A stretch of DNA of 47,560 nt from IMG/VR virus record IMGVR_UViG_2630968533_000001. One strand, written 5' to 3'. This DNA is from a virus (lineage: Duplodnaviria > Heunggongvirae > Uroviricota > Caudoviricetes). The translations under genes were made by a program, and so were the position numbers. This document shows, piece by piece, positions 41-16,415 of the stretch (its first letter is position 1; every line of letters starts with the position of its first letter). The notes under the pieces are model-generated. The model worked only from the letters and a program-made list of their open reading frames with translations, searched no databases and was not told the DNA's origin.

Positions 41-153
41 GAATTATATAATTATATATTTATATAAAAAGTGCTTTACAGGTGGGAAAAAATTTCCTAT
101 GGTTATGCCCGAAACCGAGCGATACCCGCCCTGGTTAAACCGGAGATAACCCG
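41..153 (+). promoter_or_regulatory. Conserved promoter-leader cassette, copy 1 (AT-rich palindrome, -35 TTTACA 75-80, 17-bp spacer, -10 TATGGT 98-103, conserved leader, GGAG SD)
   Basis: Near-identical to 9344-9461 and 16303-16415; sigma70-like hexamers with 17-bp spacing read directly; ends at ATG 154. Confidence 0.55.
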
Positions 154-534
154 ATGAGCATGATTAAAATCCGCAAAAACGCTTTCCTTAAAATTCAAAC
201 TATCCTGGCTGGTTCTGTTGGCGTGATTTGCCGTTCTTCTTCAAGCCGCATCGATGACGGCTACGATGATGAGTATCGTTTGTCCTCGTGCGATGAGGCT
301 TTAACCTGGCTGAAGGAGAATCAGGAACGTGCCCAGGTATATCTGGAAACAGAGAACGGCAATCAGATGCTCCGTATTAGCGGTCGTTATGGATTTGAAA
401 CCACATTCATGGCCTATTTTAATCAGGCTTACTTTGACAAGGAGTTGGCCTGGTACACTGATCGCATGAGCAAAAGCGAGCCAGCCCCGATTACACCGCC
501 GAACGATAAACCATTTTTATTCCTCGTTAAGTAA
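154..534 (+). CDS. Hypothetical protein (126 aa) expressed from cassette copy 1
   Basis: ORF track; ATG directly after the conserved leader and SD; no domain recognised. Confidence 0.6.
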   Translation: MSMIKIRKNAFLKIQTILAGSVGVICRSSSSRIDDGYDDEYRLSSCDEALTWLKENQERAQVYLETENGNQMLRISGRYGFETTFMAYFNQAYFDKELAWYTDRMSKSEPAPITPPNDKPFLFLVK

Positions 535-637
535 ACACAATGCGCAAAGTGTCAAAATGACACTTTGCGAGTGTTAATATAGGGGGCGTTTGAAGATAGA
601 TAACTTATTGTGGGGCAAGCCGATAACTTACATTGGG

Positions 638-1063
638 TTAGCTTGAATAGGTAGTTGGTATTTTGAGCATATGGCCAATCTCTTCGAGATGCTTAGATGG
701 ATTCTCCCCAGTCTTACCTTCATGTATTGACGCTATATAGTTCAAATTTTGAGCTGCCCCAAGAATCTCGGTGGCTGATGGAACAAGACGAAAGCCGATA
801 TGTAACTTTTTGATATAGAAAGGTAAAGTGGAATATTTCGCCATTAACTGTGCTGCGGAATCTTTTAGATCATGAATGATTTCTGGCTTTAAGTTCGAGC
901 CAGGATTCACTATTTTTGCTTGGTTACACAATAACAGATTGGATATTTTCCCTAGCTGTTCCCTGAATGAAATGTAAGGCTCAATAGCTCCTTTGACGAT
1001 GAGTTGGCCTAGAACAAAAACACTTACACCAGTGACCACGGTGACAAAAGCAGATGAACTCAT
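638..1063 (-). CDS. Hypothetical membrane-anchored protein (141 aa, N-terminal TM helix)
   Basis: ORF track; hydrophobic N-terminus SSSAFVTVVTGVSVFVLGQLIV; divergent from the HTH gene at 1165. Confidence 0.5.
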   Translation of the reverse strand: MSSSAFVTVVTGVSVFVLGQLIVKGAIEPYISFREQLGKISNLLLCNQAKIVNPGSNLKPEIIHDLKDSAAQLMAKYSTLPFYIKKLHIGFRLVPSATEILGAAQNLNYIASIHEGKTGENPSKHLEEIGHMLKIPTTYSS

Positions 1064-1164
1064 TTTTTACCTAAAGCCTAAAGATTGGATTGTTAATACA
1101 TCTTATTTTGTCGTGAGTGGCTATGTCTAATTTATTGAATATCTAGGGAAAGGTAGAGGATGTA

Positions 1165-1425
1165 ATGACGGGTTACGAATTGAAATTATGGCGTCGTGGG
1201 ATGAACTGGACGCAGGAGCGAGCCGCCGAAGAGTTTGGGATATCGTTGGCTACATATAAGCGATATGAGAAGGGTGAGCCGCCGAGGGTCATTGAGATGG
1301 CCATTCGCGTTCTGTCGTTTGACGATATGGTTAAGGATCTTTCACACCTTGATAAAGATGTGATTCTGTTAAGGCTGCAAACCCTTGTATGGGAAAAGGT
1401 TAAAGTGTCGTCAGAATTGGAATAA
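1165..1425 (+). CDS. Small HTH (XRE-like) DNA-binding protein
   Basis: ORF track; N-terminal LWRRGMNWTQERAAEEFGISLATYKRYEKG resembles a Cro/C1-type helix-turn-helix. Confidence 0.55.
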   Translation: MTGYELKLWRRGMNWTQERAAEEFGISLATYKRYEKGEPPRVIEMAIRVLSFDDMVKDLSHLDKDVILLRLQTLVWEKVKVSSELE

Positions 1426-1486
1426 GGGATCAAATGATCCTTTACGGATCGTTTTATGGTGGTGTAATGTAAGCGCCAGAAAGACA

Positions 1487-1510
1487 AAAACCGCCTTGCC
1501 GGGCGGTTTT
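1487..1510. terminator. Bidirectional intrinsic terminator-like hairpin (AAAACCGCC...GGCGGTTTT)
   Basis: Perfect stem ccgcc/ggcgg flanked by an A-run and a T-run. Confidence 0.5.
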
Positions 1511-2023
1511 CAGTCTGAAATTTAAATCTTGCTTGGTAGGCTGGATTTAAAAAGACACCTCTTGATTGGGGCGGCTTTCTTGCGTCTAAAGATAATCAAA
1601 TCTTTTTGCGCCTGCAACCCCTTTTTTACTGGTGCCCATTTCAGACTCACGCTCGCGTCGTTGTCTTTGCCACTTCGTTGGGTTCGGTGTTTTTGGGCGA
1701 AGTGGCGCGCGGGTATGCGTACAAGGGGAAAGTGTGCTGACGCAAGCCAGGAACAGCGATCTAAACTAAGTCGAGTCTGAGAAAGGCAGGAGTGCGACAA
1801 CTCGCCTGTGCTCTATGAGCAGAAGAAGGTATATCAGACGACCAATGGCATGATTGTGGGCCACAGGGCGCACACGGCGGCGAAGCATTGGAAACGATGT
1901 GGAGCTATCTGGTGGCATGAGTTCCGGTACTCGATCTCGAGCTTTTTTTGATGCTTTTGAGAAGGGGCCGGAACTCCGGTAAAGGGCACCCTGTATGGGG
2001 GGAGGGGGGGGTGTGTCTGAAGG

Positions 2024-2236
2024 GTGGTTATCGGTTATGGTGGAATTATGATGCGTAGAAAAGCGAGTTTGCTGCAAGCTGTTGGGTCCATTATTTCTTT
2101 GTTTCCGGCAGTTGATCATTTTCGTCATATGGCGACACGTTCCAGTATGGGCTTAGCGCGTGATGCTGACGCTATTCGAAAGGATTTTCAGAAAGTCTCT
2201 GGCGTTGATAAGAGAGAAAAGAGTAAGGGGCCGTAG
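2024..2236 (+). CDS. Small hypothetical ORF (alternative start ATG 2048), low confidence
   Basis: ORF track; ends just before the hairpin at 2225-2242; preceded by a G-rich tract; no homology recognised. Confidence 0.2.
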   Translation: MVIGYGGIMMRRKASLLQAVGSIISLFPAVDHFRHMATRSSMGLARDADAIRKDFQKVSGVDKREKSKGP

Positions 2237-2242
2237 CCCCTT
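2225..2242. terminator. Hairpin AAGGGGC-CGTA-GCCCCTT between convergent genes
   Basis: Perfect 7-bp stem directly downstream of the antirepressor stop (minus) and the small + ORF. Confidence 0.4.
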
Positions 2243-2246
2243 GTAG

Positions 2247-3416
2247 TTATGGTCTGCTCTTCTGTGCCAGCTTATCAGCACATGTTTTTATCAGATCCTG
2301 TAGTGTCCTGGCTGGCAGGTTTGCATCCAGTACGCTGAGTATGCTGTTGTGATCTGCTTGGTCGACTACTTTGCCTGTCGGTGGTAGTAGCTTGAGCTGA
2401 GGATTCAGGTTTTCGTCAAAGCTGATAAGTGCTCTGGCGTTTCTGAGCAGATCAAGAAGTAAGGCTGATATCACATTTTCCTGAGTCATTGCTGACAGAT
2501 TTAGCGCCGCTTTGGTTTTCCCTGTTGCCTTGTCAAACTCCTTGATTAGTTCCTTCCTGTAGTTCGGTTCCGTTAATAGCCGATTATGCTCTGTTGCCGC
2601 GCGGATAATCGTTTTTTCCTGGTACAGTCGTTTAGCCAGATCACGCTCGTACTGTGTTTTTAACACGCTGCTGATAGCGTTAAAGGCTTCAATGTAGGCC
2701 AGCTTGATATCTTTCACGCCTGGACCGTCGATACTTTCCATGAGCAAGGTAAATCCGTCTTTTGTCATGCGATAGATTGTTATTTCGCGGTCGCTTCCTT
2801 CCAGCGGTCGTTGCTCTTTAAAGAAATGACGTGCCGCAGCTGTGCGAGGAATGCGTAACGCATCGATGGCCATAACGATGGAATTGTTTGTGGTGCTGAA
2901 TGCCTGGGCAACATCGGCTGAGGTTGTGAGTGGCTCGTTGTTGCACACCTTAATGTAAAACATCGGTTTGGCGTTGAGCGTATCGACAACCTCACGAGCA
3001 TTGTTTGGCGAGACGGTTACGGTCGCGGCCGTTTGTGTGTTCTGGCTGAAATAGCAGTCTTCCAGCCGTTCGAACACATCCCAAGCCTGATCGGTTTCAA
3101 GCATTTTGGCGTGACGTGCAGCCCCGCGTTCTGTCCAGAGAATGAGGGAGCGGGCTTTCGGGGAAATTTGTAACCCTCTTAAAGATGGTTGCACATTTTG
3201 TGAGTGACTTAAAGTCACTCGCAAAGTTTTTAACTCATCGCCAGCCACTTTGAAAAAATGCTTTCCTTCAATAAAGCGGTTTGCGTTACGTGAGTAATTT
3301 TTTTTGATGTTATCAACGTCTGTGCCGTATAGCTTTGCCAGTAGTTCAGTAGTGATAACGGGGATCTGGTTATGCAGGATAGGCTGTAGGGTGTTAACGG
3401 TCGGAAGCGTTTTCAT
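2247..3416 (-). CDS. Phage antirepressor (N-terminal ORF6N-like and Rha-like domains)
   Basis: ORF track; N-terminal motif ITTELLAKLYGTDVDNIKKNYSRNANRFIEGKHFFKV typical of ORF6N antirepressors; central PLTTSADVAQAF segment Rha-like; start overlaps the stop of the upstream small ORF (ATGA). Confidence 0.65.
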   Translation of the reverse strand: MKTLPTVNTLQPILHNQIPVITTELLAKLYGTDVDNIKKNYSRNANRFIEGKHFFKVAGDELKTLRVTLSHSQNVQPSLRGLQISPKARSLILWTERGAARHAKMLETDQAWDVFERLEDCYFSQNTQTAATVTVSPNNAREVVDTLNAKPMFYIKVCNNEPLTTSADVAQAFSTTNNSIVMAIDALRIPRTAAARHFFKEQRPLEGSDREITIYRMTKDGFTLLMESIDGPGVKDIKLAYIEAFNAISSVLKTQYERDLAKRLYQEKTIIRAATEHNRLLTEPNYRKELIKEFDKATGKTKAALNLSAMTQENVISALLLDLLRNARALISFDENLNPQLKLLPPTGKVVDQADHNSILSVLDANLPARTLQDLIKTCADKLAQKSRP

Positions 3417-3604
3417 TTTGCACCTCCCATAACTACTTTGGTTACGAGGGAGATTTTTGCGTCAGAAACAGCGTTATCGTTGCTGGCGATGCGCATAGCT
3501 TCGCGCTCGATGATTTCAGCCAGGCGGAATTTATCGGCGTATGAGGCTTTCTTGAGAAGGATCTTTACGAGGTTGACGTAATAGTCATGGGGTAGGTTTG
3601 TCAT
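3413..3604 (-). CDS. Small protein (63 aa) translationally coupled to the antirepressor (icd-like position)
   Basis: ORF track; 4-nt overlap with the antirepressor start; SD-like AAGGGA upstream on the minus strand. Confidence 0.45.
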   Translation of the reverse strand: MTNLPHDYYVNLVKILLKKASYADKFRLAEIIEREAMRIASNDNAVSDAKISLVTKVVMGGAK

Positions 3605-3769
3605 TGTGATGATTCCCTTAAAGGTTAAGGATACTCACCACCGTCAGGTTCCAATCATTGGGTGGTGAGACGTGCAGGGTTGGAACTACCGGACACAATG
3701 ACGAACCGGCGAGTCTTACGACTCCCCCGCACGCCCCACCATAATTTGGGTGTAGCAGTGCTTTACGCA

Positions 3770-3869
3770 TAAAAAAACCGCTAACGCGGTATGCGCCATT
3801 GTGTCTACGGGGTTCCAATCCCGACCGTAGATTTTGCTACGGCTCGGAAAGTGTCCACCAATGGCGCAT
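3770..3869 (-). ncRNA. Candidate structured small RNA / leader element (c4-like hypothesis)
   Basis: On the minus strand an 11-bp terminal stem (3791-3801 with 3859-3869) encloses an inner hairpin ctacgg/ccgtag, followed by hairpin accgc-gtta-gcggt and a U7 run (3770-3790); loop sequence has a near-complement at about 3680-3695 in the downstream leader. Confidence 0.25.
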
Positions 3870-4360
3870 TCATGTCAATACGGCGGGATTTTAACAGAGA
3901 CAACCACATAGCGTGGGTTTATTGGTAGGCAGAAACAAAAAAACCGCCCTATTGAGGACGGTTCTTTCGTGCTGATCGGATTCGCGGTCCTTTCAGCATA
4001 ACGTCGTTGTATAAACAACCACGCAAGCACAAGCAGCAAGTTAATTTTACCCAAAAGGTAATAATAGTCCACTATTATGCTTCAAAAAATTGTGGTTCTT
4101 GTTGTGCCTGCAAACTCACAGATTGTGGGTAGGTTACTGATTTTGTGAAAATAAACGAGTTTTTTCGTTTAATTTCTTTCCTATTACTAATCTTAAAATA
4201 ATCGTAAAATACCTGTGGACCTTCCCGCCGATTCGCACCCGGGCACCGACTTTAGGGGAGGATTCTCCGTTGCCGTACATGCAAGCACAAGCAGCCGTGC
4301 TTGCTCTCGCGTTGTTTTCGTCGGTGGGGATGCCGTGAAACGGCCTGTAAGGGCCATACA

Positions 4361-4483
4361 ATGAAAAAATACTGTATGTGTATTTTTATCGTTGTTACTG
4401 GGGCTTTGTTTACGCCACATGGGGAGGGTTGGAAGATTACTGATAACGCTCTGAATGTGACGATAAACATTAGCAGCAAGTAG
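4361..4483 (+). CDS. Small hydrophobic ORF (40 aa, MKKYCMCIFIVVTGALF...), speculative
   Basis: In-frame ATG within ORF 4301-4483; hydrophobic N-terminus; followed by a strong terminator; no SD seen. Confidence 0.2.
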   Translation: MKKYCMCIFIVVTGALFTPHGEGWKITDNALNVTINISSK

Positions 4484-4487
4484 CGAT

Positions 4488-4512
4488 TAGGCCCCTTCGG
4501 GGGCCTTTTTTA
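4488..4512 (+). terminator. Rho-independent terminator (AGGCCCC-TTCG-GGGGCCT then T-run)
   Basis: Perfect GC-rich hairpin followed by TTTTTTAT. Confidence 0.55.
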
Positions 4513-4548
4513 TGGTTGAATTTAAACGCTGGAGGCCGTCACCTTCTC

Positions 4549-4797
4549 TTACTTCTGGTTGTATTGAGCCTTGAGTAACTCAAAAGATTTTGTCAGCACT
4601 TCTTTCAATGACATATCCATTGAGCTGGCGAACGTTTTGTACTCGCGTTTAAATTCAGGGTCGACGTTAAACGCCATTTGTGCCCCACCTGATTTGGTTC
4701 TGGTTGGCGTTTCAGTCGGGTCGAAAACCTGCGGTTGTTCGATCGATGGCGGTACGCCTTTGCTGTTCTTCTTTGGTGGTTTTGATGGTCCGGCCAT
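4549..4797 (-). CDS. ParG-like small ribbon-helix-helix partition/centromere-binding protein (82 aa)
   Basis: ORF track; lies directly downstream of parA in the same orientation; basic flexible N-terminus and C-terminal RHH-like segment MAFNVDPEFKREYKTFASSMDMSLKEVL; SD AGAGGGGA upstream. Confidence 0.5.
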   Translation of the reverse strand: MAGPSKPPKKNSKGVPPSIEQPQVFDPTETPTRTKSGGAQMAFNVDPEFKREYKTFASSMDMSLKEVLTKSFELLKAQYNQK

Positions 4798-4840
4798 GTG
4801 TATCCCCTCTTATATAAATCTATAAAACTATAATTATATA

Positions 4841-5509
4841 TTACGCGGCAGTAGTCAGAGCCTCAAGCTGGTTGATAATCCCCTGAATAACGTCGTCTGC
4901 CTTTTTGCGTGGCGCAACGTATGAGCATTCAATGAGGCTTAAGCCCTTATCCTGAGCTTTGCTCAGAGCTGGCTTGTGGGGAATGTACTTATCGACAACA
5001 AAGTATGGCGTATTAGCCAGGTACTCTTGGGCTTCAATGTAGTCGGCTTCGTTTTCAGCCGCGCCTGAGAACACCATGCAAATTTTCTTGATTGGCACAC
5101 CCTTTTTAACGATGCCGTGAGCTGTGTTAACGGTGGTTTCCAGGTCATCGGTAGAGAATCTGGTTGGCAAAATAACCATATCCAGAAATTCAGAGAGCTT
5201 CGGTACTGATTCAGATGCGTAGGCACCGCCATCGACGATAACCAGGTCGTATACTTCTGATTCGATGATTTTCTGGACTTGTGATGGCGTGCCGCACGGC
5301 TGCGCCGCGATTGCAGGTTCGATATTGTTGGCCATTCTGCGTTGTACCCAACGCGTTACCGTTCCGTTAAGCACATCCATATCGATCAGGCATACATTCC
5401 AGCCGGCCTTTGCATAAGCAACTGCTAAAGCACGGGCAATTGTTGATTTGGTTACGCCGCCTTTTCCGTTGAAAATACCTACAGAGATAGTCATTTGTCG
5501 AGACTCCAT
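4841..5509 (-). CDS. parA: ParA/ParF-type partition ATPase
   Basis: ORF track; deviant Walker A GKGGVTKST near the N-terminus; about 220 aa, typical of small type Ib ParA proteins. Confidence 0.85.
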   Translation of the reverse strand: MESRQMTISVGIFNGKGGVTKSTIARALAVAYAKAGWNVCLIDMDVLNGTVTRWVQRRMANNIEPAIAAQPCGTPSQVQKIIESEVYDLVIVDGGAYASESVPKLSEFLDMVILPTRFSTDDLETTVNTAHGIVKKGVPIKKICMVFSGAAENEADYIEAQEYLANTPYFVVDKYIPHKPALSKAQDKGLSLIECSYVAPRKKADDVIQGIINQLEALTTAA

Positions 5510-5511
5510 GT

Positions 5512-5620
5512 ATTTGGTTATATAATTCTATAAATCTATATTTATAGAACGAGGTAAGCATAACCAACTTTTTGGCGGATGAAAAGCGTTTTATATAATT
5601 ATATAAATCTATAATCATGT
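5512..5620. repeat. Iterated AT-rich boxes upstream of parA (putative partition operator/centromere-like site)
   Basis: Two related boxes (5518-5549, 5589-5616) containing TATATAATT(A/C)TATA and AATCTATA; perfect 14-bp palindrome TATATAATTATATA at 5592-5605. Confidence 0.4.
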
Positions 5621-5644
5621 AAGCGGGCGTTAGCCCGCTTTCAG

Positions 5645-6019: not shown

Positions 6020-6052
6020 GCGTAGCCTCTTTTATACTTTTACATGTTGTCA

Positions 6053-6071
6053 AAACCACAAAATGTGGTTT
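6053..6071. promoter_or_regulatory. Operator-like palindrome AACCACA-N3-TGTGGTT
   Basis: Perfect inverted repeat read directly; same half-site family as the palindromes in the cI/cro intergenic region. Confidence 0.35.
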
Positions 6072-6111: not shown

Positions 6112-6768
6112 TCATAACCAGTTGACAACACTAACTACGCGGCCAAGAACTTTATAACGCTTAAATTCCTCGTTATTCAGATGCTTAGTGTTCATTTCAG
6201 CATCCCTTTCGGTTGACAGCATAACAGCATTGTCACCCGGTATGACTCTACAGTGCCTCAAAACAACCAGGCCATTTCTGTCTTCAAGGGCATAGATCCC
6301 CTCATGAATCTCTGTATCGTCTGTATTAATCAGGACTTGGGAGCCAGGGGATATTGTTGGTGACATTAACTCATCGTTGCTCTGGAGAACTGACAGAGAC
6401 GATGGGTTGATGTTCTTGCTTCGTAGAATCTCCTGTTCTATCGCCAGCACTGGCTTTTCTCCGGCGTGCGATGCTATGTCATTTTTTATAGCTACAAGCC
6501 CAGGAATAACAGGAGCGTTAGTATTCTGGGGTGGGAACGGGTTATCTGTTAAGCACGCGATATAAGGCGCTGATGCTTTCAGGGCGTGCGCGATTTTCTT
6601 GATGGCAGGTATAGATGGTTGTCTTAATCCGGCCTCATAGTTCTGCAAGGTGCTTAAGCCTATTCCAGTGACTTGCTGGAGATCTCCGGCAGTCATGCCG
6701 GATTGTTTCCGTAGAGTCTGAATGCGCAGACCTATTTCTTTCTTGATGTTCTCGTCGTTGCTTTTCAT
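6112..6768 (-). CDS. cI-like repressor (N-terminal HTH plus C-terminal S24/LexA-like peptidase domain)
   Basis: ORF track; N-terminal HTH IGLRIQTLRKQSGMTAGDLQQVTGIGLSTLQNYEAG; C-terminal autocleavage-type domain; divergent from the cro-like gene. Confidence 0.8.
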   Translation of the reverse strand: MKSNDENIKKEIGLRIQTLRKQSGMTAGDLQQVTGIGLSTLQNYEAGLRQPSIPAIKKIAHALKASAPYIACLTDNPFPPQNTNAPVIPGLVAIKNDIASHAGEKPVLAIEQEILRSKNINPSSLSVLQSNDELMSPTISPGSQVLINTDDTEIHEGIYALEDRNGLVVLRHCRVIPGDNAVMLSTERDAEMNTKHLNNEEFKRYKVLGRVVSVVNWL

Positions 6769-6941
6769 GTCTCATCAATCGTGAATGGTGGGTTATTTAT
6801 ACATTACCACATTTAGTGGTTTTCACATGGTAAGACGAGAGGTGGACCACAAATAGAAGGTTATTTTTTGTTTCGCCCATTGAAAAACTCACGATATGTG
6901 GTTTTAATACCACATATCGTGGTTTAACTGGAGTTCGTTAA
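6769..6941. promoter_or_regulatory. Divergent repressor/cro promoter-operator region
   Basis: 12-bp perfect inverted repeat CACGATATGTGG/CCACATATCGTG at 6890-6921 and ACCAC-N5-GTGGT at 6806-6820 between the divergent genes. Confidence 0.5.
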
Positions 6942-8914: not shown

Positions 8915-9292
8915 GTGAGACGCGATCTGGATAGCTTGTTTGAGCTATGGGCGCTGTGGGTGCGCAATGGCTGCAACGCCCGTAGCGGTTTCGCGTCGAT
9001 GTTAGAAATGATGATGGTTACGCGCTGCCAGTTTACCGGAGGGGGCGGCGCACCAAATGACTCACTGGAAACCAGTATAGAGGGAGCGGTGACGGCCCTC
9101 ACGGTAGTTGATGAGACTGCGGCGCTGGTTGTCCGAATTGAATACGGGGCGTGGGAGATTCGGGGCCTCGACATAAATGCACCGCATATTGATAAAGCCC
9201 ACGCCCTTTCTCTTAGCCTCAGACAGTATCGCCGGAAGCTGGCAAAAGCCAGGGCGTATGTTGTCGACTATTTGAAAAAGCGAAGAGAGTAA
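8915..9292 (+). CDS. Hypothetical protein (125 aa)
   Basis: ORF track; N-terminal LFELWALWVRNG motif; family unresolved. Confidence 0.4.
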   Translation: MRRDLDSLFELWALWVRNGCNARSGFASMLEMMMVTRCQFTGGGGAPNDSLETSIEGAVTALTVVDETAALVVRIEYGAWEIRGLDINAPHIDKAHALSLSLRQYRRKLAKARAYVVDYLKKRRE

Positions 9293-9343
9293 AAGTGTCA
9301 TTTTGAGCTGTTTTGATGGTGTGTAGACATCGGGAACATCGAA

Positions 9344-9461
9344 AATCTATAAATATATAATTATAGATTTATATAAAAAGTGCTTTACAGGTGGGAAAAA
9401 ATTTCCTATGGTTATACCCGAAACCGAGCGATACCCGCCCTGGTTAAACCGGAGAAATCTG
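9344..9461 (+). promoter_or_regulatory. Conserved promoter-leader cassette, copy 2
   Basis: About 95 bp identical to copies 1 and 3 (TTTATATAAAAAGTGCTTTACAGGTGGGAAAAAATTTCCTATGGTTATACCCGAAACCGAGCGATACCCGCCCTGGTTAAACCGGAG); ends at ATG 9462. Confidence 0.55.
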
Positions 9462-10529
9462 ATGAATAAACAAGTAATTATTTCTGACTGGATCAACAAC
9501 CCTAACAGCCTGTTAAGCACTGATACTGGCTACCTATTACGCCATGTTAATGGTCGTATGGTCAAAAGCGATGAGCACGAAACCTTTTTCTTTGTTGAAG
9601 ACGATGGGCGTATCTATGAGGATGGTTACTCTTATGAAGCCCAAACTGGTTGTATCCCTGCGGAGCTGGTGGACGTAACAGAAGATCTGCGCAAAGCATG
9701 GCTTGAACAGCAGCAGCGCGGAGATGATTACGTAAACACCTATCAGGAACGCCAGAACGCGCGTCTTGCCCGATATATTGCTCGTGCAGAAAAAGCCAGA
9801 AAAGAAGGTGCGGTAGCGCATAAGCGAGCGCATGACCTGTTGGATGTGATCCCGTTAGGCCAGCCGATTTTAGTTGACCATTATAGCGCGAAAGGCCATC
9901 GCCGCCGTTTGTCTAAAGCTGATGCGTTATTCAGAAAAGCGTTTGTTGAATGCGAAAGTAAAGCATCACACTACGAGAGCAAAGCCGCAGGTGTTGGTCG
10001 TAATGGAATTTCGTCTGATGATCCTGATGCGCTATTTAAGTTGCTTCGTAAGCTGCAAGGCTGCATGAAGTCACACGTCAAAATGAAGGCCGCAAATAAG
10101 GCCATTCGCAAATACAAAAAAGACCAAATACAGCAGCTTTCTGCATTAATCGATCTCAGGTTTACAGAAAGCGAAGCCAAAGAGTTACTGGCCGGAGATT
10201 TCTGTGGGCACATCGGATTCCCTTCATACGCACTGAGCAACAATAACGCCGAAATCAAACGACTACAGAGCCGTATTAAGGAGCTTGAATCGGTCAAGTC
10301 TGTAACAGGAGCACAGCGCGAAGAATACGACGGCTTTTCTATGGAGATAGATCCAGAGGATAACCGCATCCTGTTTTATTTCCCTGGCAAACCAGAGGCA
10401 AACATTCGTTCGCTGCTTAAATCACGCGCCTTTAAGTGGAGTCCAACCCGTAATGCATGGGTTCGCAAGATTACTCCAAACGCCCTGGCTGATGCCCGAT
10501 ATCTAAAAGAATCGCTATTGAAAGCCTGA
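9462..10529 (+). CDS. Hypothetical protein (356 aa) expressed from cassette copy 2
   Basis: ORF track ORF 9408-10529, but the ORF-track start lies inside the conserved leader; ATG 9462 sits at the same position relative to the leader as in copies 1 and 3. Confidence 0.55.
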   Translation: MNKQVIISDWINNPNSLLSTDTGYLLRHVNGRMVKSDEHETFFFVEDDGRIYEDGYSYEAQTGCIPAELVDVTEDLRKAWLEQQQRGDDYVNTYQERQNARLARYIARAEKARKEGAVAHKRAHDLLDVIPLGQPILVDHYSAKGHRRRLSKADALFRKAFVECESKASHYESKAAGVGRNGISSDDPDALFKLLRKLQGCMKSHVKMKAANKAIRKYKKDQIQQLSALIDLRFTESEAKELLAGDFCGHIGFPSYALSNNNAEIKRLQSRIKELESVKSVTGAQREEYDGFSMEIDPEDNRILFYFPGKPEANIRSLLKSRAFKWSPTRNAWVRKITPNALADARYLKESLLKA

Positions 10530-10538: not shown

Positions 10539-10568
10539 TACGGCGGGACGTCTCCCGCCGTATATAGA
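10539..10568 (+). terminator. Intrinsic terminator-like hairpin (CGGCGGGA-CGTC-TCCCGCCG) with T/A-rich tail
   Basis: Perfect 8-bp GC-rich stem directly after the stop at 10529. Confidence 0.45.
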
Positions 10569-10606
10569 ATTATATATTTATACAAATGTATAAGGACGCC
10601 TCGACA

Positions 10607-10888
10607 ATGAAACGCAAAATTATTAACCCCCAAGATGTGATTAATTTCCTGACCGATCACCCATGTTCAAAAGTGGACGTAATCGCGGAGCACATTGGTG
10701 TGTCGCAGAACTCTATGCGTTGCAGACTGAGAAGCATGGTTGCCGAAGGACAGATAACAACCAGGAAAATAAATGGTTGCCTGTACTACTCCGCTAAACC
10801 GGAATTGCCATTTGGCATGAATCCTAACTCCATGTTGTTTAACACCTTATTAGCCAAAGTTAAGCCGTTGAGAGGGGCTGTGGCATGA
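10607..10888 (+). CDS. Putative winged-HTH DNA-binding protein (93 aa)
   Basis: ORF track ORF 10586-10888; in-frame ATG 10607 with SD AAGGA; motif DVIAEHIGVSQNSMRCRLRSMVAEGQI resembles a wHTH. Confidence 0.45.
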   Translation: MKRKIINPQDVINFLTDHPCSKVDVIAEHIGVSQNSMRCRLRSMVAEGQITTRKINGCLYYSAKPELPFGMNPNSMLFNTLLAKVKPLRGAVA

Positions 10889-12118: not shown

Positions 12119-12120
12119 CT

Positions 12121-12465: not shown

Positions 12466-13177
12466 CAGCACAGCAATTAACTATCAGGCACTACGTGAGA
12501 TAGCAAAACAGGCAACACAGGGCGAATGGGTCGCATTTATTTCGCCGGGCAAACACGGCACGTACGCTGTGCACACACCAGGAGATAATCATCACGGAGA
12601 TATTGTCGACTGGCCAGGATTCGACGAACAGAAAAACGCAGAGAACAACGCTCGTTATATCGCAGCTTTCAACCCAGAAGTAGTGCAGGCGTTGCTGAAT
12701 GAACGGGAAGCACAAAGCAAACGCATTGCTGAACTGGAGGCCAGTCGTGCGGCGCTGGCGGCGGAGAATGCAGGGCTTAAGGCGATATGTGATGACCGTC
12801 GCAGGTTCATCATGAATGGGGTGCAGACGGGTTATATCAAGGTGCCAACAGCGGAAACAGCTCCAGACCTTGAGACAATTCGCATTGCTATATCACCACA
12901 AAAGCCCATTCCAGCCACCGATGCTTTCCTGGCTGAAATACGTGCGGAGGCACGCAACGAGGGGATTAACTACACCGCAAGCCGTCTTGCTGCTGCGTTC
13001 AATCACGGATTTATCAATAAGTCTTTGCGTGAAGTTTTCGACGTTACACGCATGATTTTGTCAGCGAAAGAAGAGTTGGCTAATGAACCGCACCCGATTG
13101 ATGGCCTGTCCGGTGAATATGCGGAGAAATCTCTTGAGGAGTGGGCGGAACAGATTCGTAAAGGAGGCGACAAGTGA
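12458..13177 (+). CDS. Ead/Ea22-like protein
   Basis: ORF 12413-13177; likely start ATG 12458 after SD GGAG; N-terminal NYQALREIAKQATQGEWVAF plus coiled-coil, typical Ead/Ea22-like signature as recalled. Confidence 0.5.
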   Translation: MTNSTAINYQALREIAKQATQGEWVAFISPGKHGTYAVHTPGDNHHGDIVDWPGFDEQKNAENNARYIAAFNPEVVQALLNEREAQSKRIAELEASRAALAAENAGLKAICDDRRRFIMNGVQTGYIKVPTAETAPDLETIRIAISPQKPIPATDAFLAEIRAEARNEGINYTASRLAAAFNHGFINKSLREVFDVTRMILSAKEELANEPHPIDGLSGEYAEKSLEEWAEQIRKGGDK

Positions 13178-13365
13178 GCAATTTAGCGAGGCTACGAGCA
13201 GTATTTAGATATTCAGAGCGGGTAATGAGGCACATACAACCGAAAACATGGCAGAAATTGGATTCTGTGGGAGTTAAGTTGGAGAAGATTACTCAACTTA
13301 AGCAGTGGAATATCGGCGAATATTATGGAAGTCCTGGTCGGGATGTTCAGTTGGTAAAAAGTTGA
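13174..13365 (+). CDS. Hypothetical small protein (63 aa)
   Basis: ORF track. Confidence 0.35.
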   Translation: MSNLARLRAVFRYSERVMRHIQPKTWQKLDSVGVKLEKITQLKQWNIGEYYGSPGRDVQLVKS

Positions 13366-13511
13366 ACATTGCTTTTTTATTGATCGATTAACCACGATAT
13401 GAAGGTTTTTTTATGGGGAAACCTTGTTTTAGGTGGTAACTGGGTGTAGTGTTTCATTTAACGTAGTAAAACTGCGTTAAGCGATTACCGCGTAATTTGT
13501 TGCTTTATGAA

Positions 13512-13542
13512 GCCCTGCCTTTTTCGGCGGGGCTTTTTTTTT
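13512..13542 (+). terminator. Intrinsic terminator immediately upstream of the holin gene (tR'-like position)
   Basis: 8-bp stem GCCCTGCC/GGCGGGGC (one G-U pair) followed by a T9 run, 14 bp before the holin start. Confidence 0.5.
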
Positions 13543-13555
13543 AACGAGGATTTCA

Positions 13556-13951
13556 ATGTCAGCAGAACCAATTTCCGGTACGGCCGTTGCTGCTGGTGGC
13601 CTGATGGGTGCCAGCGTTTTTGGTATTGCAACTGGTATTGATTACGGCGTTGTATTCGGGGCATTTGCTGGCGCTGTTTTCTATGTTGCTACAGCGGTGA
13701 ATATTAGCCGTCTCAAGCTGATTGGCTATTTCTTTACATCGTTCATTGTTGGAGTGATTGGAGCGCCGTTAGTTGGCTCATTTCTTGCCAAATGGACCAG
13801 CTACAACGATCGACCTCTTGATGCGCTTGGTGCGGTTATTGTGGCTGCATTGACAATTAAAATCCTCACGTTCGTAAACAGCCAGGATCTCGGTAGCATC
13901 TTTGGAATGCTTTCCCGCTTACGTGGAGGGGGTTCAAATGGTAAGCAGTGA
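13556..13951 (+). CDS. Holin-like membrane protein (131 aa, multiple TM segments)
   Basis: ORF track; Gly/Ala-rich hydrophobic segments; first gene of the lysis cassette. Confidence 0.5.
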   Translation: MSAEPISGTAVAAGGLMGASVFGIATGIDYGVVFGAFAGAVFYVATAVNISRLKLIGYFFTSFIVGVIGAPLVGSFLAKWTSYNDRPLDALGAVIVAALTIKILTFVNSQDLGSIFGMLSRLRGGGSNGKQ

Positions 13952-14234
13952 CCCGTCAGCACTGATTAATGCGGTGCTTTGCACAGTAATAGTAATGGCG
14001 CTGATGCTTTATCGACGGAAAGACTCCAGGCATCGTCCATTTGTTTCCTTTCTGGCTTATATCTACGTCATTGTATACGCCAATGTTCCCTTCCGTTATG
14101 TGTTCGGTCTTTATCAAGAATCCCACTGGCTGGTGGTTATTGGAAATCTGATTATCTGCATCGTTGTTCTGTATTTCAGGGGCAATCTGGCGCGGATAGT
14201 TGACGCATTAGGATTTAATCATGACCAAAGATGA
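13938..14234 (+). CDS. Second holin/antiholin-like membrane protein
   Basis: ORF 13902-14234; likely start ATG 13938 with SD GGAGGGGG; three hydrophobic segments. Confidence 0.4.
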   Translation: MVSSDPSALINAVLCTVIVMALMLYRRKDSRHRPFVSFLAYIYVIVYANVPFRYVFGLYQESHWLVVIGNLIICIVVLYFRGNLARIVDALGFNHDQR

Positions 14235-14763
14235 GATTTTTAACAGCATTCTTGGAAAAGAGGGCGGCTATGTGGATCACCCTGACGACAAGGGAGGCCC
14301 AACAATGTGGGGCATCACTCAGAATACTGCCCGTGCTCACGGATACCGTGGCGATATGCGAGATCTGACGCGAGAACAGGCTCTGATGATTCTTGAAGGT
14401 GATTATTGGTATGGGCCTCGTTTTGACCAGGTGGCGCAATTTTCCCCTGATATTGCGGCTGAGATGTGCGATACGGGCGTCAACATGGGGCCGACTGTGG
14501 CTACGAAGATGCTTCAACGTTGGCTGAATGTTTTCAACCGTGGCGGGAAGTTGTATCCAGATATGGATGTGGATGGGCGAATCGGCCCGCGCACCATTGC
14601 GGCATTACGTGCTTATCTTGGGAATCGGGGAAAAGACGGCGAACGGGTAATGCTGACGGCCCTGAACTGTACGCAGGGCGACCGTTATCTGGACCTGGCG
14701 GAGAAACGCGAAGCAAATGAGTCGTTTGTCTATGGCTGGATGAAAGAGCGAGTGGTGGTATGA
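14221..14763 (+). CDS. Endolysin (GH108-like N-terminal domain plus peptidoglycan-binding C-terminal domain)
   Basis: ORF track; N-terminal GKEGGYVDHPDDKGGPTMWGIT is the GH108 signature as recalled; position between holin and spanins. Confidence 0.8.
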   Translation: MTKDEIFNSILGKEGGYVDHPDDKGGPTMWGITQNTARAHGYRGDMRDLTREQALMILEGDYWYGPRFDQVAQFSPDIAAEMCDTGVNMGPTVATKMLQRWLNVFNRGGKLYPDMDVDGRIGPRTIAALRAYLGNRGKDGERVMLTALNCTQGDRYLDLAEKREANESFVYGWMKERVVV

Positions 14764-15038
14764 CTGGTTTGAAGGCCGTTTTGTCATTTATTGGCACAAT
14801 TATATTGGTTGCATTCGGCGCGTTTGGTTTTGGTCGTATGAAGGGGCGAGAAAAGGCCGAAGATGAAGCTGAAAAGCAGCGCATTAATGAGAATGCAGCC
14901 GCCGTAAAAGCCACTGCGGAGCGGCGTATAGAAGTGACAAAAGAGGTGGGGAATGTACAGCAGAGTGTTAACCATATGGCTGATGACGATGTTGATCGCG
15001 AGCTGCGGGAGTCGTGGAAGCGTCCCGGTGGTGGTTGA
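14760..15038 (+). CDS. i-spanin (Rz-like)
   Basis: ORF track; N-terminal TM helix then charged coiled-coil; Rz1-like ORF begins inside its 3' end. Confidence 0.55.
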   Translation: MTGLKAVLSFIGTIILVAFGAFGFGRMKGREKAEDEAEKQRINENAAAVKATAERRIEVTKEVGNVQQSVNHMADDDVDRELRESWKRPGGG

Positions 15039-15162
15039 TACCGCCTGTGATTGGGTAAAGCCCATCTACCTGACTGATCACGACATCGATGTTATGGACC
15101 GCCAGACAAAGAAAGATATTCTGGCTCATAACAGGGCATGGGAAATCAACTGTCCAAAGTAA
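14953..15162 (+). CDS. o-spanin (Rz1-like lipoprotein) overlapping Rz in another frame
   Basis: ORF track; signal peptide with lipobox-like LIASC; starts within the Rz coding region. Confidence 0.55.
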   Translation: MYSRVLTIWLMTMLIASCGSRGSVPVVVDTACDWVKPIYLTDHDIDVMDRQTKKDILAHNRAWEINCPK

Positions 15163-15331
15163 TATATATTTCTATAATTATATAAATATATAGTTACAAC
15201 ATTCTATGCGCTTTTCTCATGGGCGCACGCATCAACCATGTTTGTCTGATATGCCGCCGCGCCCAAAAATCCTGAATTTATTGGCTGGGATTTTCGTGCG
15301 CGGCGCCACACCAGACAAACAAATCAAATAT

Positions 15332-15407
15332 GGCCCCTTAGCTCAGTGGTTAGAGCAGGCGACTCATAATCGCACGGTCATCGGTTCAAATCCGGTAGGG
15401 GCCACCA
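15332..15407 (+). tRNA. tRNA with CAT anticodon (tRNA-Met or lysidine-type tRNA-Ile2-like)
   Basis: Cloverleaf read by hand: acceptor GGCCCCT/AGGGGCC, D-arm GCTC/GAGC, anticodon loop CTCATAA (CAT at 15365-15367), T-arm ATCGG-TTCAAAT-CCGGT, encoded CCA; G1-C72 paired so not an initiator; 5' half resembles E. coli ileX as recalled. Confidence 0.85.
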
Positions 15408-15714
15408 ATTCACTCTCACACATAAAGATAAGCGCGGTGGAGTTACTTCTTCGTGCTCATCTTTATGCGTGCCTGGTGCGCATTTCGGGCGAACGTGGGG
15501 CTAAGTTACAGGCAGGGCCTGTTATCCGCAAAGGGGTAAAAGCTGGAGCGGCACGGAACTGTAGCCGTGTTACCAAAACAGCGTTGTCGGGCGATATCCG
15601 GCACACAACAGGCAAGGGCATTAATCAGTCTGGTTAGCGCCCTTTTCGTTGTGTTTGCTGTAGAGCTGGCCAGCGTTATGACTGCCGGAGATAAGCGCCG
15701 GAGGCACAATTAAC

Positions 15715-16302
15715 ATGGAGGAAATTGCATTGTTTAATCTGATTTATGCAGATCCCCCCTGGGAATACAAAGACAAGTGTAAGGATGGGAATCGTGGAGC
15801 TGGTTTTAAGTATCCAACGATGAAAGCTGAGGAGATTGCTCGTATTCCTGTCTGGCAGCTTGCTAATCCTGAATCGTGTTTGTTGGCCATGTGGTGGGTT
15901 CCGACTCAGCCAGAAGAAGCGTTGCTGGTGGTGAAAGCATGGGGATTCAGGCTTATGACCATGAAGGGCTTCACATGGAACAAATGTGGTAGCCGACAAC
16001 CAGATAAGCTGGTGATGGGGATGGGGCATATGACTCGTGCAAACAGTGAAGATTGCTTGTTTGCGGTAAAAGGCAAATTGCCGACCCGCCTTGATGCGGG
16101 GATCATTCAGTCGTTTACATCGCTTCGTCTGGAGCATTCTCGGAAGCCTGATGTGGTTCGTGACAAGCTGGTAAGGCTGTTAGGTGATGTTCCTCGTATT
16201 GAGCTGTTTGCTCGCGGTGATTTACCTGATGGTTGGCATGGCTGGGGCAACCAGTGCAATGGAGGTATCCAGTTGCATGATGCTCTCTGGCAAGTGGCAT
16301 AG
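15715..16302 (+). CDS. MT-A70 family adenine DNA methyltransferase
   Basis: ORF track; catalytic DPPW motif in LIYADPPWEYK near the N-terminus. Confidence 0.8.
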   Translation: MEEIALFNLIYADPPWEYKDKCKDGNRGAGFKYPTMKAEEIARIPVWQLANPESCLLAMWWVPTQPEEALLVVKAWGFRLMTMKGFTWNKCGSRQPDKLVMGMGHMTRANSEDCLFAVKGKLPTRLDAGIIQSFTSLRLEHSRKPDVVRDKLVRLLGDVPRIELFARGDLPDGWHGWGNQCNGGIQLHDALWQVA

Positions 16303-16415
16303 AATTATATAATTATATATTTATATAAAAAAGTGCTTTACAGGTGGGAAAAAATTTCCTATGGTTATACCCGAAACCGAGCGATACCCGCCCTGGTTAA
16401 ACCGGAGATAACCCG
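16303..16415 (+). promoter_or_regulatory. Conserved promoter-leader cassette, copy 3
   Basis: Near-identical to copy 1; perfect palindrome TATATAATTATATA at 16306-16319; -35 TTTACA 16337-16342, -10 TATGGT 16360-16365. Confidence 0.55.

Follow-up and report, generated by a model that had tools for sequence, protein, structure and literature searches.

The window, the whole 47,560-nt stretch of DNA analysed here, is an E. coli myovirus phage-plasmid, with an IncFII-type RepA and a ParA. It belongs to a family of ~48-kb phage-plasmids, comprising 65 PLSDB plasmids and three isolated Yersinia phages, that carries RepA, ParA and a myovirus structural module. Sequence architecture, homologies, conservation and covariation were computed directly. 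We identified three modules of ~118 bp (36-153, 9345-9461 and 16297-16415) that precede three unrelated genes. The parts of each cassette occur in the same order: a four-box array of 8-bp boxes, a sigma-70 promoter (TTTACA-17-TATGGT), a hairpin-containing leader, ACCGGAGA, and the ATG. A 17-bp palindrome, T(G/A)GGAAA-N3-TTTCCTA, occupies the promoter spacer of each cassette and overlaps the -10.

36-67, plus strand: cassette A box array, four boxes (TCATAGAA TTATATAA TTATATAT TTATATAA), ending 7 bp before the -35
75-103, plus strand: cassette A promoter; -35 TTTACA at 75-80, 17-bp spacer, -10 TATGGT at 98-103
83-99, no strand assigned: cassette A KorC-type candidate operator TGGGAAAAAATTTCCTA, 2 nt past the -35 and covering the first 2 nt of the -10
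113-136, plus strand: cassette A leader hairpin (AACC-GAGCG / CGC-CCU-GGUU), near the predicted mRNA 5' end
137-156, plus strand: cassette A conserved ribosome-binding region AAACCGGAGATAACCCG and ATG; SD GGAG at 142-145, ATG at 154
154-534, plus strand: cargo gene A, 126-aa protein; then a bidirectional terminator hairpin (543-569)
9345-9376, plus strand: cassette B box array (ATCTATAA ATATATAA TTATAGAT TTATATAA)
9384-9412, plus strand: cassette B promoter TTTACA-17-TATGGT; KorC-type candidate operator at 9392-9408
9422-9464, plus strand: cassette B leader; hairpin 9422-9445, SD GGAG 9451-9454, ATG 9462
9462-10529, plus strand: cargo gene B, encoding 355 aa that include a DUF3560 domain; the C-terminal part matches a PHROG annotated as primase
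16297-16328, plus strand: cassette C box array (GCATAGAA TTATATAA TTATATAT TTATATAA)
16337-16365, plus strand: cassette C promoter TTTACA-17-TATGGT; KorC-type candidate operator at 16345-16361
16375-16418, plus strand: cassette C leader; hairpin 16375-16398, SD GGAG 16404-16407, ATG 16416
16416-16882, plus strand: cargo genes C, 89-aa (16416-16685) and 66-aa (16682-16882) proteins; then a terminator (16904-16927)

Alignment of the three copies, which the earlier note had called for, bore out the near-identity it described: pairwise identity is 90-97% over ~120 bp, and a 37-nt core has three matches at one mismatch or fewer, against 0 expected from 100 shuffles. The -35, 17-bp spacer, -10, GGAG and ATG all lie where that note had placed them. 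Identity of the cassette to its counterpart in a Salmonella plasmid is 87.6-87.9%, compared with a genome-wide mean of 74% and 71-72% for adjacent genes, and this excess over the genome-wide mean suggests that the cassette is under selection. Part of the high identity among the copies within the window is due to gene conversion, not selection. The cassette C array begins at the stop codon of an MT-A70 methyltransferase gene.

Each cassette heads a transcription unit of one or two genes closed by a hairpin or terminator; for cargo gene B, a GC-rich hairpin (10541-10558) lies 3'. The 126-, 355- and 89-aa products (the second previously given as 356 aa) have no BLASTP similarity among themselves, confirming that the downstream proteins are unrelated to each other.

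Besides the three cassettes, the palindrome occurs at one other place, the promoter of a gene for a 95-aa helix-turn-helix (HTH) protein.

46030-46058, plus strand: fourth promoter, TTGCCA-17-TACCAT; its palindrome (46038-46054, TAGGAAAAGATTTCCTA) is perfect, and it has no box array
46085-46372, plus strand: KorC homologue, the 95-aa HTH protein, candidate repressor of the four operators

Identity of this protein to IncP-1 KorC is 45-52%: 45% to the annotated KorC of pMLUA1, and 52% (E 1e-25) to the product of the gene that immediately follows klcA-klcB in IncP-1 plasmids. The fourth promoter is presumably the autoregulated korC promoter. All four palindrome sites are kept in relatives from Salmonella, Klebsiella and Enterobacter, with diverged flanks at the fourth site; in the E. 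coli lineage, each of the three cassettes has an imperfect left arm (TGGG). Operator register is the same in the cassettes and in IncP-type promoters, starting 2 nt past the -35 and extending 2 nt into the -10. The inner arms are GAAA/TTTC in the cassettes versus GGCA/TGCC or GACA/TGTC in IncP operators, and because of this difference it is co-occurrence alone that suggests recognition of the palindrome by the KorC homologue. The transcriptional co-regulation proposed in the earlier note is well supported, as each of the three cassettes combines a box array with a KorC-type palindrome across the -10, and the KorC homologue encoded by the replicon has the same palindrome in its own promoter. 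That note had mentioned neither the spacer palindrome as a KorC operator nor the fourth promoter, the connection with the partition system or the kinship with IncP-1 promoters. A 90-aa gene (46387-46659) lies 3' of the KorC homologue gene.

The 8-bp boxes extend beyond the cassettes. What had been described as an AT-rich palindrome is really four tandem boxes, and arrays are present at five further places, three in the par region and two elsewhere.

4549-4797, minus strand: 82-aa ParG/omega-like protein with a disordered basic N-terminal tail, then strand-helix-helix; candidate box binder
4810-4841, no strand assigned: box array in the parA-parG intergenic region
4841-5509, minus strand: ParA, small Walker-type, 222 aa, without an N-terminal HTH; type Ib-like
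5518-5622, minus strand: parA promoter; -35 TTTTCA at 5580-5585, -10 TATGCT at 5557-5562
5591-5622 and 5518-5549: box arrays flanking the parA promoter, upstream and downstream (in the leader), respectively
10562-10593, plus strand: box array directly before a 93-aa winged-helix-like gene (10607-10888)
15162-15201, plus strand: box array 5' of both tRNA-Met (15332-15407) and the MT-A70 methyltransferase gene

Arrays contain three or four boxes, the box (TTATATAA) being palindromic. Their period is strictly 8 bp (six arrays, versus none at other periods from 6 to 12 and 0.03 in shuffles). In Salmonella the cassette arrays are conserved, as are the one near the tRNA, the one preceding the 93-aa gene and two of the par-region three; the parA-leader array was not recovered there at the stringency used. 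The parA promoter shares the cassette layout of boxes, then -35. The sequence GGACGCCTCGACAATG, 3' of the 10562-10593 array, resembles the parA ribosome-binding region.

The 82-aa ribbon-helix-helix-like protein, whose gene follows parA, is the likeliest box binder. In two relatives (L017 and L018) the 82-aa proteins are only 46-48% identical, and the 8-bp-periodic boxes around parA differ in sequence, at three par positions in L018 and at the two flanking the parA promoter in L017. Pfam RHH_10 is matched by 19 of 50 members of the protein family, and the family profile has a weak, in-register match to ParG (E 0.69). Direct searches with the 82-aa protein itself returned no Pfam or PDB match; its AF2 model is moderate (pLDDT 65) and was uninformative in Foldseek. 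Given a moderate model and no Pfam match, the boxes could be bound by another protein or be UP elements. Comparable type Ib systems are ParF-ParG of TP228, in which the ribbon-helix-helix centromere binder is also a transcriptional regulator and tetramer boxes are spaced at 8 bp, and delta-omega of pSM19035, with a ribbon-helix-helix regulator and heptad repeats before several promoters. As in those systems, a small ParA lacking an HTH is followed by an ~80-aa basic-tailed strand-helix-helix protein, short tandem repeats surround the par promoter and, as with omega, par repeats also occur upstream of other promoters of the replicon. Unlike in those systems, similarity to ParG is marginal, the box is unlike those known, some arrays are located within the operon or before start codons, and the binder is a candidate only.

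When the stretch between the -10 and the ATG is aligned to IncP klcA leaders, the cassette agrees with them in 41-48 of 61-63 columns (z 6.7-9.7), a level reached in 0 of 2000 shuffles. The promoter core AAGTGCTT(T/G)ACAGGT is common to the cassettes and IncP-type promoters. Among KorC-encoding loci of diverse Proteobacteria, 38 of 50 yielded one or more such modules, with two or three copies in 21 of the 38; across the 52 IncP-type loci scanned, the modules stand before different genes, and none of this cargo, KlcA and KleA included, is related to the cargo proteins of the window. In RP4, KorA and KorC repress klcA (an anti-restriction gene), kleA and kleC, whose zygotic induction is 20- to 224-fold (PMC7314908). 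The KorC site of pOXA-48 lies between the -35 and -10 (PMC12365149). Strong steady-state repression and zygotic induction characterize KorC regulons (PMC7314908, PMC7414963, PMC12365149).

These homologies suggest that the three cassettes are a kil-kor-type regulon within a phage-plasmid, the module being homologous to the klcA/kleA/kleC promoters of IncP-1; we put the probability of this reading at about 0.7. Like the IncP-1 kil-kor system of RK2/RP4 and the KorC regulons of IncU RA3 and IncL pOXA-48, the element has a replicon-encoded KorC homologue, a 17-bp TAGG...CCTA palindrome 2 nt past the -35 and overlapping the -10, two or three near-identical promoter-leader copies per replicon before unrelated genes, a second (here candidate) operator directly upstream of the -35, and a homologous promoter core, leader hairpin and ACCGGAGA ribosome-binding site. 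The regulon type is known, but the carrier here is a tailed-phage phage-plasmid rather than a conjugative plasmid. Other differences, besides the inner operator arms and the cargo, are that korC has its own operator-bearing promoter and adjoins the replication region, and that the place of the KorA operator is taken by the box arrays common to the par locus. The KorA operator GTTTAGCTAAAC and KorA were looked for in the phage-plasmid and are absent.

From these features we infer which proteins bind the DNA, in which direction they regulate, what the hairpin is for and how the cargo proteins may act. The cassette would be a near-consensus sigma-70 promoter under double repression. The KorC homologue may bind the palindrome that fills the spacer and the start of the -10, and autoregulate at the fourth copy. 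The four-box array occupies the position just ahead of the -35 that the KorA operator has in IncP-1 promoters, and binding by the 82-aa partition protein would tie cassette activity to the partition operon. In the leader, the 5'-proximal hairpin and the open ACCGGAGA ribosome-binding site that follows may serve mRNA stabilisation and efficient translation. By analogy, the cassette genes are most likely switched on in a burst at entry into a new, repressor-free cell, as three short promoter-gene-terminator units, and then shut down in the plasmid-prophage state. An early-establishment or anti-defence role, as the earlier note expected, fits the analogy to RP4 zygotic induction and klcA, but the three cargo proteins resemble no known kil, kle or anti-defence proteins.

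Leader folding, covariation and conservation in related elements had been set as a test in the earlier note. Among 44 distinct homologous leaders, the hairpin has compensatory changes at five of eight pairs, with a covariation score reached by 0 of 500 shuffles, and 93.4% of cells pair versus 20-52% when partner columns are slid. RNAalifold independently recovers seven of the eight pairs. This covariation is partly from single lineages, eight A-U cells at the outermost pair representing one event, and the folding energy is modest (-9.6 kcal/mol, z -2.3). The direct repeat ATACCCG, previously singled out as conserved, has been lost from the Salmonella and Klebsiella counterparts (TAACCAG and ATAGTCG), where the hairpin is conserved instead. 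Post-transcriptional co-regulation is thus plausible, given a leader conserved well beyond background and a covarying hairpin, but the leader may simply favour expression without being regulated. A true post-transcriptional switch, with the leader as target of a trans-acting antisense RNA or RNA-binding protein or as a riboswitch-like sensor, seems unlikely. Conservation of the leader from IncP-1 plasmids to the phage-plasmid, near-invariant positions of ACCGGAGA and the hairpin, and antisense RNAs (C4 among them) encoded elsewhere on the phage-plasmid would fit such a switch. However, complementary stretches in the window are few, at most 11 nt long and confined to coding regions; the leader matches no Rfam family, alternative pairing that sequesters the SD is not evident, and a small hairpin with a freely variable stem better fits a structural role than recognition. 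It is highly improbable that the inverted repeat instead works at the DNA level, as an operator bound past the start site by another dimeric repressor. Its spacing from the promoter is indeed the same in every copy, but stem sequence varies by lineage (GGGC/GCCC, GAAA/UUUC, AGA/UCU, AACC/GGUU); because stems change while complementarity persists, a folded strand is indicated rather than a sequence recognised by a protein.

It is also unlikely that the arrays are UP elements, or H-NS or IHF sites, that set promoter strength, leaving the cassettes regulated by KorC only. They are almost pure A+T and lie at about -43 to -75, in the range of UP elements, and the 82-aa protein lacks a direct database match. 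Against this reading, the box is palindromic and strictly periodic, with other periods empty, its sequence changes with the 82-aa protein in the two relatives, and arrays occur downstream of the parA promoter, between parA and parG and before start codons, where UP elements would have no role. The cassettes could also be recent duplicates of a strong constitutive "moron" promoter, homogenised by gene conversion, with incidental palindrome and boxes and no dedicated repressor. Paralogues within the genome are indeed more alike than orthologues between genomes, variants of the SD-to-ATG linker swap among copies in relatives, and the promoter-gene-terminator layout of each unit is typical of morons. 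We consider this very unlikely, as the cassette remains 88% identical in a relative with a 74% genome-wide mean, the palindrome recurs before the KorC homologue in an otherwise unrelated promoter and is conserved there across genera, and the whole module is homologous to promoters experimentally repressed by KorC (PMC7314908). As with prophage morons, one or two genes per cassette are closed by a terminator inside a long co-directional block of phage genes. Morons normally have unrelated promoters, whereas these three units share one promoter-leader, homologous to that of a plasmid regulon.

The three promoter-leader copies reported in the earlier note are real, and the cassettes are a genuine, non-random and explainable feature. 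Judged from its sequence, this phage-plasmid carries three copies of a KorC-type promoter-leader module, a putatively autoregulated korC promoter, and arrays resembling the operators of a type Ib partition system. The kind of regulation is already known from the kil-kor regulon of IncP-1 plasmids. Reading of nucleotides 1-600, 9200-9600 and 16150-16750, followed by alignment, resolved the copies into a single common module (cassettes A, B and C, at 36-153, 9345-9461 and 16297-16415) with pairwise identities of 90-97% over ~120 bp. A 37-nt core has three matches at ≤1 mismatch, versus none expected from 100 shuffles.

The -35 TTTACA, 17-bp spacer, -10 TATGGT, GGAG and ATG all lie as first described. 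What had been called an AT-rich palindrome upstream is actually four tandem 8-bp boxes (consensus TTATATAA), the box itself being palindromic. The ATACCCG direct repeat, proposed as a conserved leader feature, is lost in the Salmonella and Klebsiella versions and was dropped as a candidate binding site for that reason. Homology begins abruptly, after the terminator at 5-27 in copy A, in the intergenic space past the 8915-9292 gene in copy B, and at the stop codon of an MT-A70 methyltransferase in copy C, and stops at the ATG. The leader forms a hairpin that is followed by the conserved ribosome-binding region AAACCGGAGA. Each unit comprises one or two genes and then a terminator or hairpin (543-569, 10541-10558, 16904-16927). 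The three proteins directly downstream (126, 355 and 89 aa) are mutually unrelated by BLASTP, as had been stated; the second had been given as 356 aa. Cassette C is followed by a 66-aa protein as well.

The window belongs to a myovirus phage-plasmid, based on annotated relatives and Pfam and PHROG scans. Yersinia phages vB_YpM_39/41/44 (49 kb) are 97-98% identical to its first 12 kb, and each has three cassette copies. The cassette was found in at least 51 of 65 matching PLSDB plasmids, which are non-mobilisable, ~46-51 kb in length, and come from E. coli, E. albertii, E. fergusonii, Salmonella and Klebsiella. The absence of cassettes A and C from two compared loci, L008 and L010, is apparent only: the locus ends cut off cassette A in both, and cassette C is present in L008 and missing in L010, where the contig diverges downstream. 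The features referred to here are as follows.

113-136: leader hairpin, copy A
36-67, 4810-4841, 5518-5549, 5591-5622, 9345-9376, 10562-10593, 15162-15201, 16297-16328: box arrays, including looser ones
44464-45441: IncFII-type RepA (annotated relatives, Pfam/PHROG)
4841-5509, minus strand: small ParA (annotated relatives, Pfam/PHROG)
6112-6768, minus strand: CI-like repressor (annotated relatives, Pfam/PHROG)
HigB/HigA-like toxin-antitoxin pair: annotated RelE/ParE-family toxin and HTH protein; higB2 in vB_YpM_39
Single long rightward block: early, lysis, methylase, ParB-like, terminase, head and tail genes
3658-3746 and 3771-3843, minus strand: C4 antisense RNA (77.8 bits) and isrK (67.7 bits), from Rfam
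2247-3416 and 3413-3604, minus strand: 389-aa Ant/Rha-type antirepressor and small ORF, downstream of C4/isrK

Region 2247-3843 is a P1/P7-type, immI-like antirepressor region. Given C4 and isrK ahead of the Ant/Rha-type gene, an RNA-controlled antirepressor seems to exist alongside a CI-like repressor in this element. Palindromes of the form ACCACA-N3-TGTGGT (6050-6070 and 6800-6925) are found where the CI-like gene and the early operon diverge, and also after a 124-aa gene. They are probably CI/Cro operators, unlike either type of cassette operator. Just downstream of the par operon, Rfam gave a full-length match to the ryfA sRNA family (4215-4511, plus strand; 141.8 bits, E 1.7e-36), with a terminator (4489-4506) at its end; this RNA may be a type I toxin-antitoxin or stress RNA aboard the phage-plasmid. 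In the interval that separates cassette C from the terminase genes, three genes with ParB/Srx N-terminal domains (207, 459 and 196 aa) occupy 18290-22169. A fragment of cassette A (boxes, -35 and operator start), truncated by IS26, lies beside higBA-like genes on a conjugative cfr-carrying plasmid (L016, NZ_CP037908.1, 1444-1491), showing exchange between this phage-plasmid family and resistance plasmids.

The spacer of the cassette promoter contains a 17-bp palindrome, TGGGAAAAAATTTCCTA, the final two bases of which are the TA of the -10. Beyond the cassettes, the window has a single further GGAAA-N3-TTTCC (46038-46054), which forms a perfect TAGGAAAAGATTTCCTA in the spacer of a TTGCCA-17-TACCAT promoter, in the same register as in the cassettes. 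That promoter precedes the gene of a 95-aa helix-turn-helix protein (46085-46372, plus strand), and this fourth copy is the pointer to KorC. The protein, a KorC-family repressor on the same replicon, is 52% identical (E 1e-25) to an IncP-1 protein whose gene lies directly after klcA-klcB and before kleE-korA-incC-korB, the position of korC. PLSDB relatives of the IncP-1 protein are annotated as "transcriptional repressor KorC", and full-length alignment of the 95-aa protein with the annotated pMLUA1 KorC gives 45% identity. At the C-terminus, the motif IPYAAWALLCYFAGLGxIF is common to the 95-aa protein and KorC homologues. Operator-bearing promoters on the replicon are thus those of the three cassettes and of korC, and the homologue is the putative repressor of the cassettes, predicted to regulate its own promoter as well. 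In Salmonella plasmid CP053324, on average 74% identical to the window, all four sites read TAGGAAA(A/T)AT(T/A)TTCCTA and the flanks of the fourth have diverged; Klebsiella and Enterobacter relatives likewise keep the operators, with diverged fourth-site flanks. A 90-aa protein without database match (46387-46659, plus strand) is co-transcribed with the KorC homologue, and could be, for example, a partner or second regulator.

KorC was recognised as a global repressor in IncP-1 plasmids as early as the 1980s. The pMLUA1 kleAp/klcAp promoters read GTTTAGCTAAAA-cgc-TTGACA-gc-TAGGGCAAATTGCCCTA-ATATT, so that the operator begins 2 nt past the -35 and extends two bases into the -10, a placement identical to that in the cassettes. 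The same register is seen in most operator-bearing promoters displayed from 50 IncP-type loci. The outer TAGG/CCTA is common to both groups of operators, whereas the inner arms differ in the window. Also shared are the core AAGTGCTT(T/G)ACAGGT around the -35, the leader hairpin and ACCGGAGA. From -10 to ATG, cassette and IncP klcA leaders are identical in 41-48 of 61-63 aligned columns (z 6.7-9.7), a match equalled by 0 of 2000 shuffles and as close as that of two IncP clades to each other.

A KorC-alignment scan using one genome per species found loci in a broad range of Proteobacteria, 50 in all. In 38 of them we recovered one or more modules built as TTGACA-nn-TAGG..CCTA-(about 10 nt)-GAAGGCCGGGCAnnnnGCCCAGGTCAAnnACCGGAGAAnnnCCGATG, and 21 of the 38 have two or three copies. 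Across 52 IncP-type loci (the 50 plus L019 and L026), modules precede differing genes. By number of distinct sequences, this cargo comprises KlcA-like (20), KleA-like (16) and ParB-like (443-690 aa; 4) proteins and assorted small ones; the ParB-like cargo is found at L055, L057, L060 and L067. Multiple near-identical promoter-leader cassettes, each in front of an unrelated gene, are therefore a standing property of KorC regulons. Published work on other plasmids is in agreement. RP4 uses KorA and KorC to repress klcA, kleA and kleC; arrival of the plasmid in a recipient raises klcA expression about 224-fold and that of the kle genes 20-50-fold (PMC7314908). The chief global regulator of RA3 is KorC (PMC7414963). 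pOXA-48 needs korC for its maintenance and has the KorC site in korC's own operon, between -35 and -10; the same 2025 paper describes the precise function of KorC in RP4 physiology as still undefined (PMC12365149).

Repressors other than KorC were also considered for the cassettes. Control by the CI-like repressor is out, as the ACCACA-N3-TGTGGT operators are missing from them. In IncP-1 kil-kor promoters a KorA operator lies next to the -35, whereas the window cassettes have 8-bp box arrays in that place. The KorA operator GTTTAGCTAAAC is absent beside the cassette -35; its two window matches, both with 2 mismatches, lie elsewhere and are at chance frequency (2.3 expected), and we rejected it. 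A two-box pattern has 17 window matches versus 0.49 expected. Arrays of at least three boxes (≤2 mismatches each) number six at a period of 8, none at periods of 6, 7 or 9-12, and 0.03 in shuffles. The parA promoter, on the minus strand, consists of boxes, 5 bp, TTTTCA, 17 bp, TATGCT, 7 bp, boxes, SD and ATG, and another array occupies the parA-parG intergenic space. The upstream half of the cassette thus copies the parA promoter layout. Because the KorA gene of IncP-1 plasmids is part of the partition operon, the logic appears to be preserved with different parts: one par-operon repressor plus KorC.

The likeliest binder of the boxes is an 82-aa protein encoded after parA (4549-4797, minus strand), a putative ParG- or omega-like centromere protein and regulator. 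The ParA is a small Walker-type protein of 222 aa without a DNA-binding domain, its CbiA/ParA/MipZ domains starting at residue 10-12. The 82-aa protein has a proline- and lysine-rich N-terminal tail followed by MAFNVDPEFKREYKTFASSMDMSLKEVLTKSFELLKAQ; an AF2 model (pLDDT 65) has disorder over residues 1-40 and helices at 47-59 and 62-80. The protein itself has no Pfam or PDB match, and Foldseek on this pLDDT 65 model was uninformative. An exhaustive HMMER search found a family of 75-90-aa proteins of the same build, with Pfam RHH_10 in 19 of 50 members and Antitox_RHH in 12 of 50. The family profile gave weak, in-register matches to ParG 1p94 (E 0.69) and a CopG-family RHH protein (E 1.4). Tandem short repeats at the par promoter change together with the protein: two relatives (L017 and L018) with 46-48% identical proteins have 8-bp-periodic boxes of other sequence around parA. 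These are ATCTTTAA / TTAAAGAT at all three par positions in L018, and ATACATAT-like at the two promoter-flanking positions in L017, where the parA-parG intergenic space has none. The assignment to the 82-aa protein is suggested by the family RHH matches, this covariation and the placement of the arrays.

In Salmonella, TTATATAA arrays are kept at the three cassettes, in front of both the 93-aa gene and the tRNA gene, and at two of the three positions in the par region; at the stringency used, the array in the parA leader did not show up. At 10562-10622 in the window, the array before the 93-aa winged-helix-like gene is followed by GGACGCCTCGACAATG, which resembles the parA ribosome-binding region GGAGTCTCGACAAATG (L018 counterpart, GGAGCCTCGACAATG). 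Part of the parA leader thus seems to have been copied to a second gene, and the arrangement is kept in Salmonella plasmid L012 (34116-34163). Another array, of 4-5 units, lies ~130 bp upstream of the tRNA-Met gene (15332-15407). The mechanically called ORF 15206-15637 overlaps this tRNA and is probably not a gene.

The folding and covariation check suggested for the leader identified a hairpin with compensatory changes. The alignment comprised 44 distinct leaders (36 IncP-type, 8 from this family of phage-plasmids), and its columns 18-25 pair with 33-41. Standard pairs make up 93.4% of cells, versus 20-52% with the 3' partner slid by 1-3 columns. Five of the eight pairs have both-sided changes, the eight A-U cells at the outermost pair representing a single event. 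In 0 of 500 shuffles did covariation score, percentage paired or number of pair types reach the observed values, and RNAalifold independently recovered seven of the same eight pairs. Several stem variants are independent: GGGC/GCCC is the majority form, with GAAA/UUUC and AGA/UCU in L055 and L060, GGGU/ACU in L058, GGGU/ACC in L028, CGGC/GCUG in L057 and L067, and an outer stem AACC/GGUU in phage-plasmids. Within the phage-plasmid family, leader changes are confined to the loop (CC to GU, C to U), unpaired 5' bases, or G.U to G-C replacements.

Alone, the hairpin is modestly stable (-9.6 kcal/mol, z -2.3). With transcription predicted to start ~7 nt past TATGGT, near 110, 9419 and 16372 in the three copies, only 3-4 nt would precede the stem. 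In E. coli mRNA decay, 5'-terminal stem-loops protect against 5'-end-dependent attack by RNase E, and the leader is thus most likely a stabilising, expression-boosting 5' UTR. A terminator or attenuator is out, as the hairpin lacks a U-tract downstream, and the leader has no apparent pairing in which the SD would be masked. Nor is it a known RNA family, with no cassette match in Rfam 15 at gathering thresholds or at E up to 10. An antisense partner encoded in the window was rejected, as complementary stretches there are few, at most 11 nt long, and inside coding regions.

The leader is also kept in related elements. Cassettes are 87.6-87.9% identical to those of the Salmonella plasmid, versus 71-72% for the adjacent 126-aa and DUF3560 genes and a genome-wide mean of 74%, so conservation is higher in the non-coding module than in the genes under its control. 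Within a genome, copies are more alike (90-97% in E. coli, 87-90% in Salmonella) than are orthologous copies from different genomes (84-85%), and orthologous pairs are no closer than non-orthologous ones. In relatives, the SD-ATG linker variants ATAACCCG and AATCTG trade positions among copies. Together with the within-genome likeness, this swapping indicates gene conversion on top of selection. An imperfect left operator arm (TGGG), present in all three E. coli-type cassettes and not in the korC promoter, fits with gene conversion.

Within the cargo, the 355-aa protein combines a DUF3560 domain with a C-terminal part matching a primase-annotated PHROG. Sequence searches of Pfam, NCBIfam and PDB with the cargo proteins returned nothing besides DUF3560, the other PHROG families have no assigned function, and the 89-aa and 66-aa proteins had no informative match. 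None of the cargo resembles KlcA, KleA or other IncP-type cassette cargo. We dropped the assignment of function by sequence match; that these may be anti-defence or establishment genes is an idea drawn from regulatory analogy only. A more speculative proposal, which we consider rather unlikely, is that the hairpin-plus-ACCGGAGA leader is an uncatalogued cis-acting RNA, common to KorC regulons of IncP-type plasmids and this phage-plasmid, that would control the size or the timing of the entry burst post-transcriptionally, and that the cargo (126 aa, DUF3560/primase-like 355 aa, 89 plus 66 aa) represents new establishment or anti-defence factors. If so, the cargo would serve a phage that must also settle as a plasmid.

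Three aspects of the system seem not to have been described before: the phage context, the IncP-1 regulatory module now being in a virus that doubles as a plasmid; the exchange of the KorA operator for 8-bp box arrays, the putative operator of a different partition system; and the new cargo, three wholly different genes. It makes testable "burst on entry, then silence" as a strategy common to conjugative plasmids and phage-plasmids, the role of the conserved leader hairpin, and whether the three cargo proteins aid establishment of a newly arrived genome. The order -35, 2 nt, TAGG-N9-CCTA, hairpin and ACCGGAGA provides a signature for entry-burst genes in other mobile elements.

A full-text literature search for KorC with phage-plasmid returned no pertinent title or abstract. 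Among 50,697 GenBank phage records, KorC homologues were found only in the three Yersinia phages, with one weak match in a Pseudomonas phage. Nine of 12 IMG/VR matches to KorC come from this phage-plasmid family, and two of the other three have the same kind of module. Two IMG/VR contigs classed as viral, L088 (3608-3700) and L089 (588-680 and 1263-1339), have distant KorC homologues (37-39% identity) and a module that combines another operator, TAGGACGAAAAGTCCTA, with a hairpin leader.
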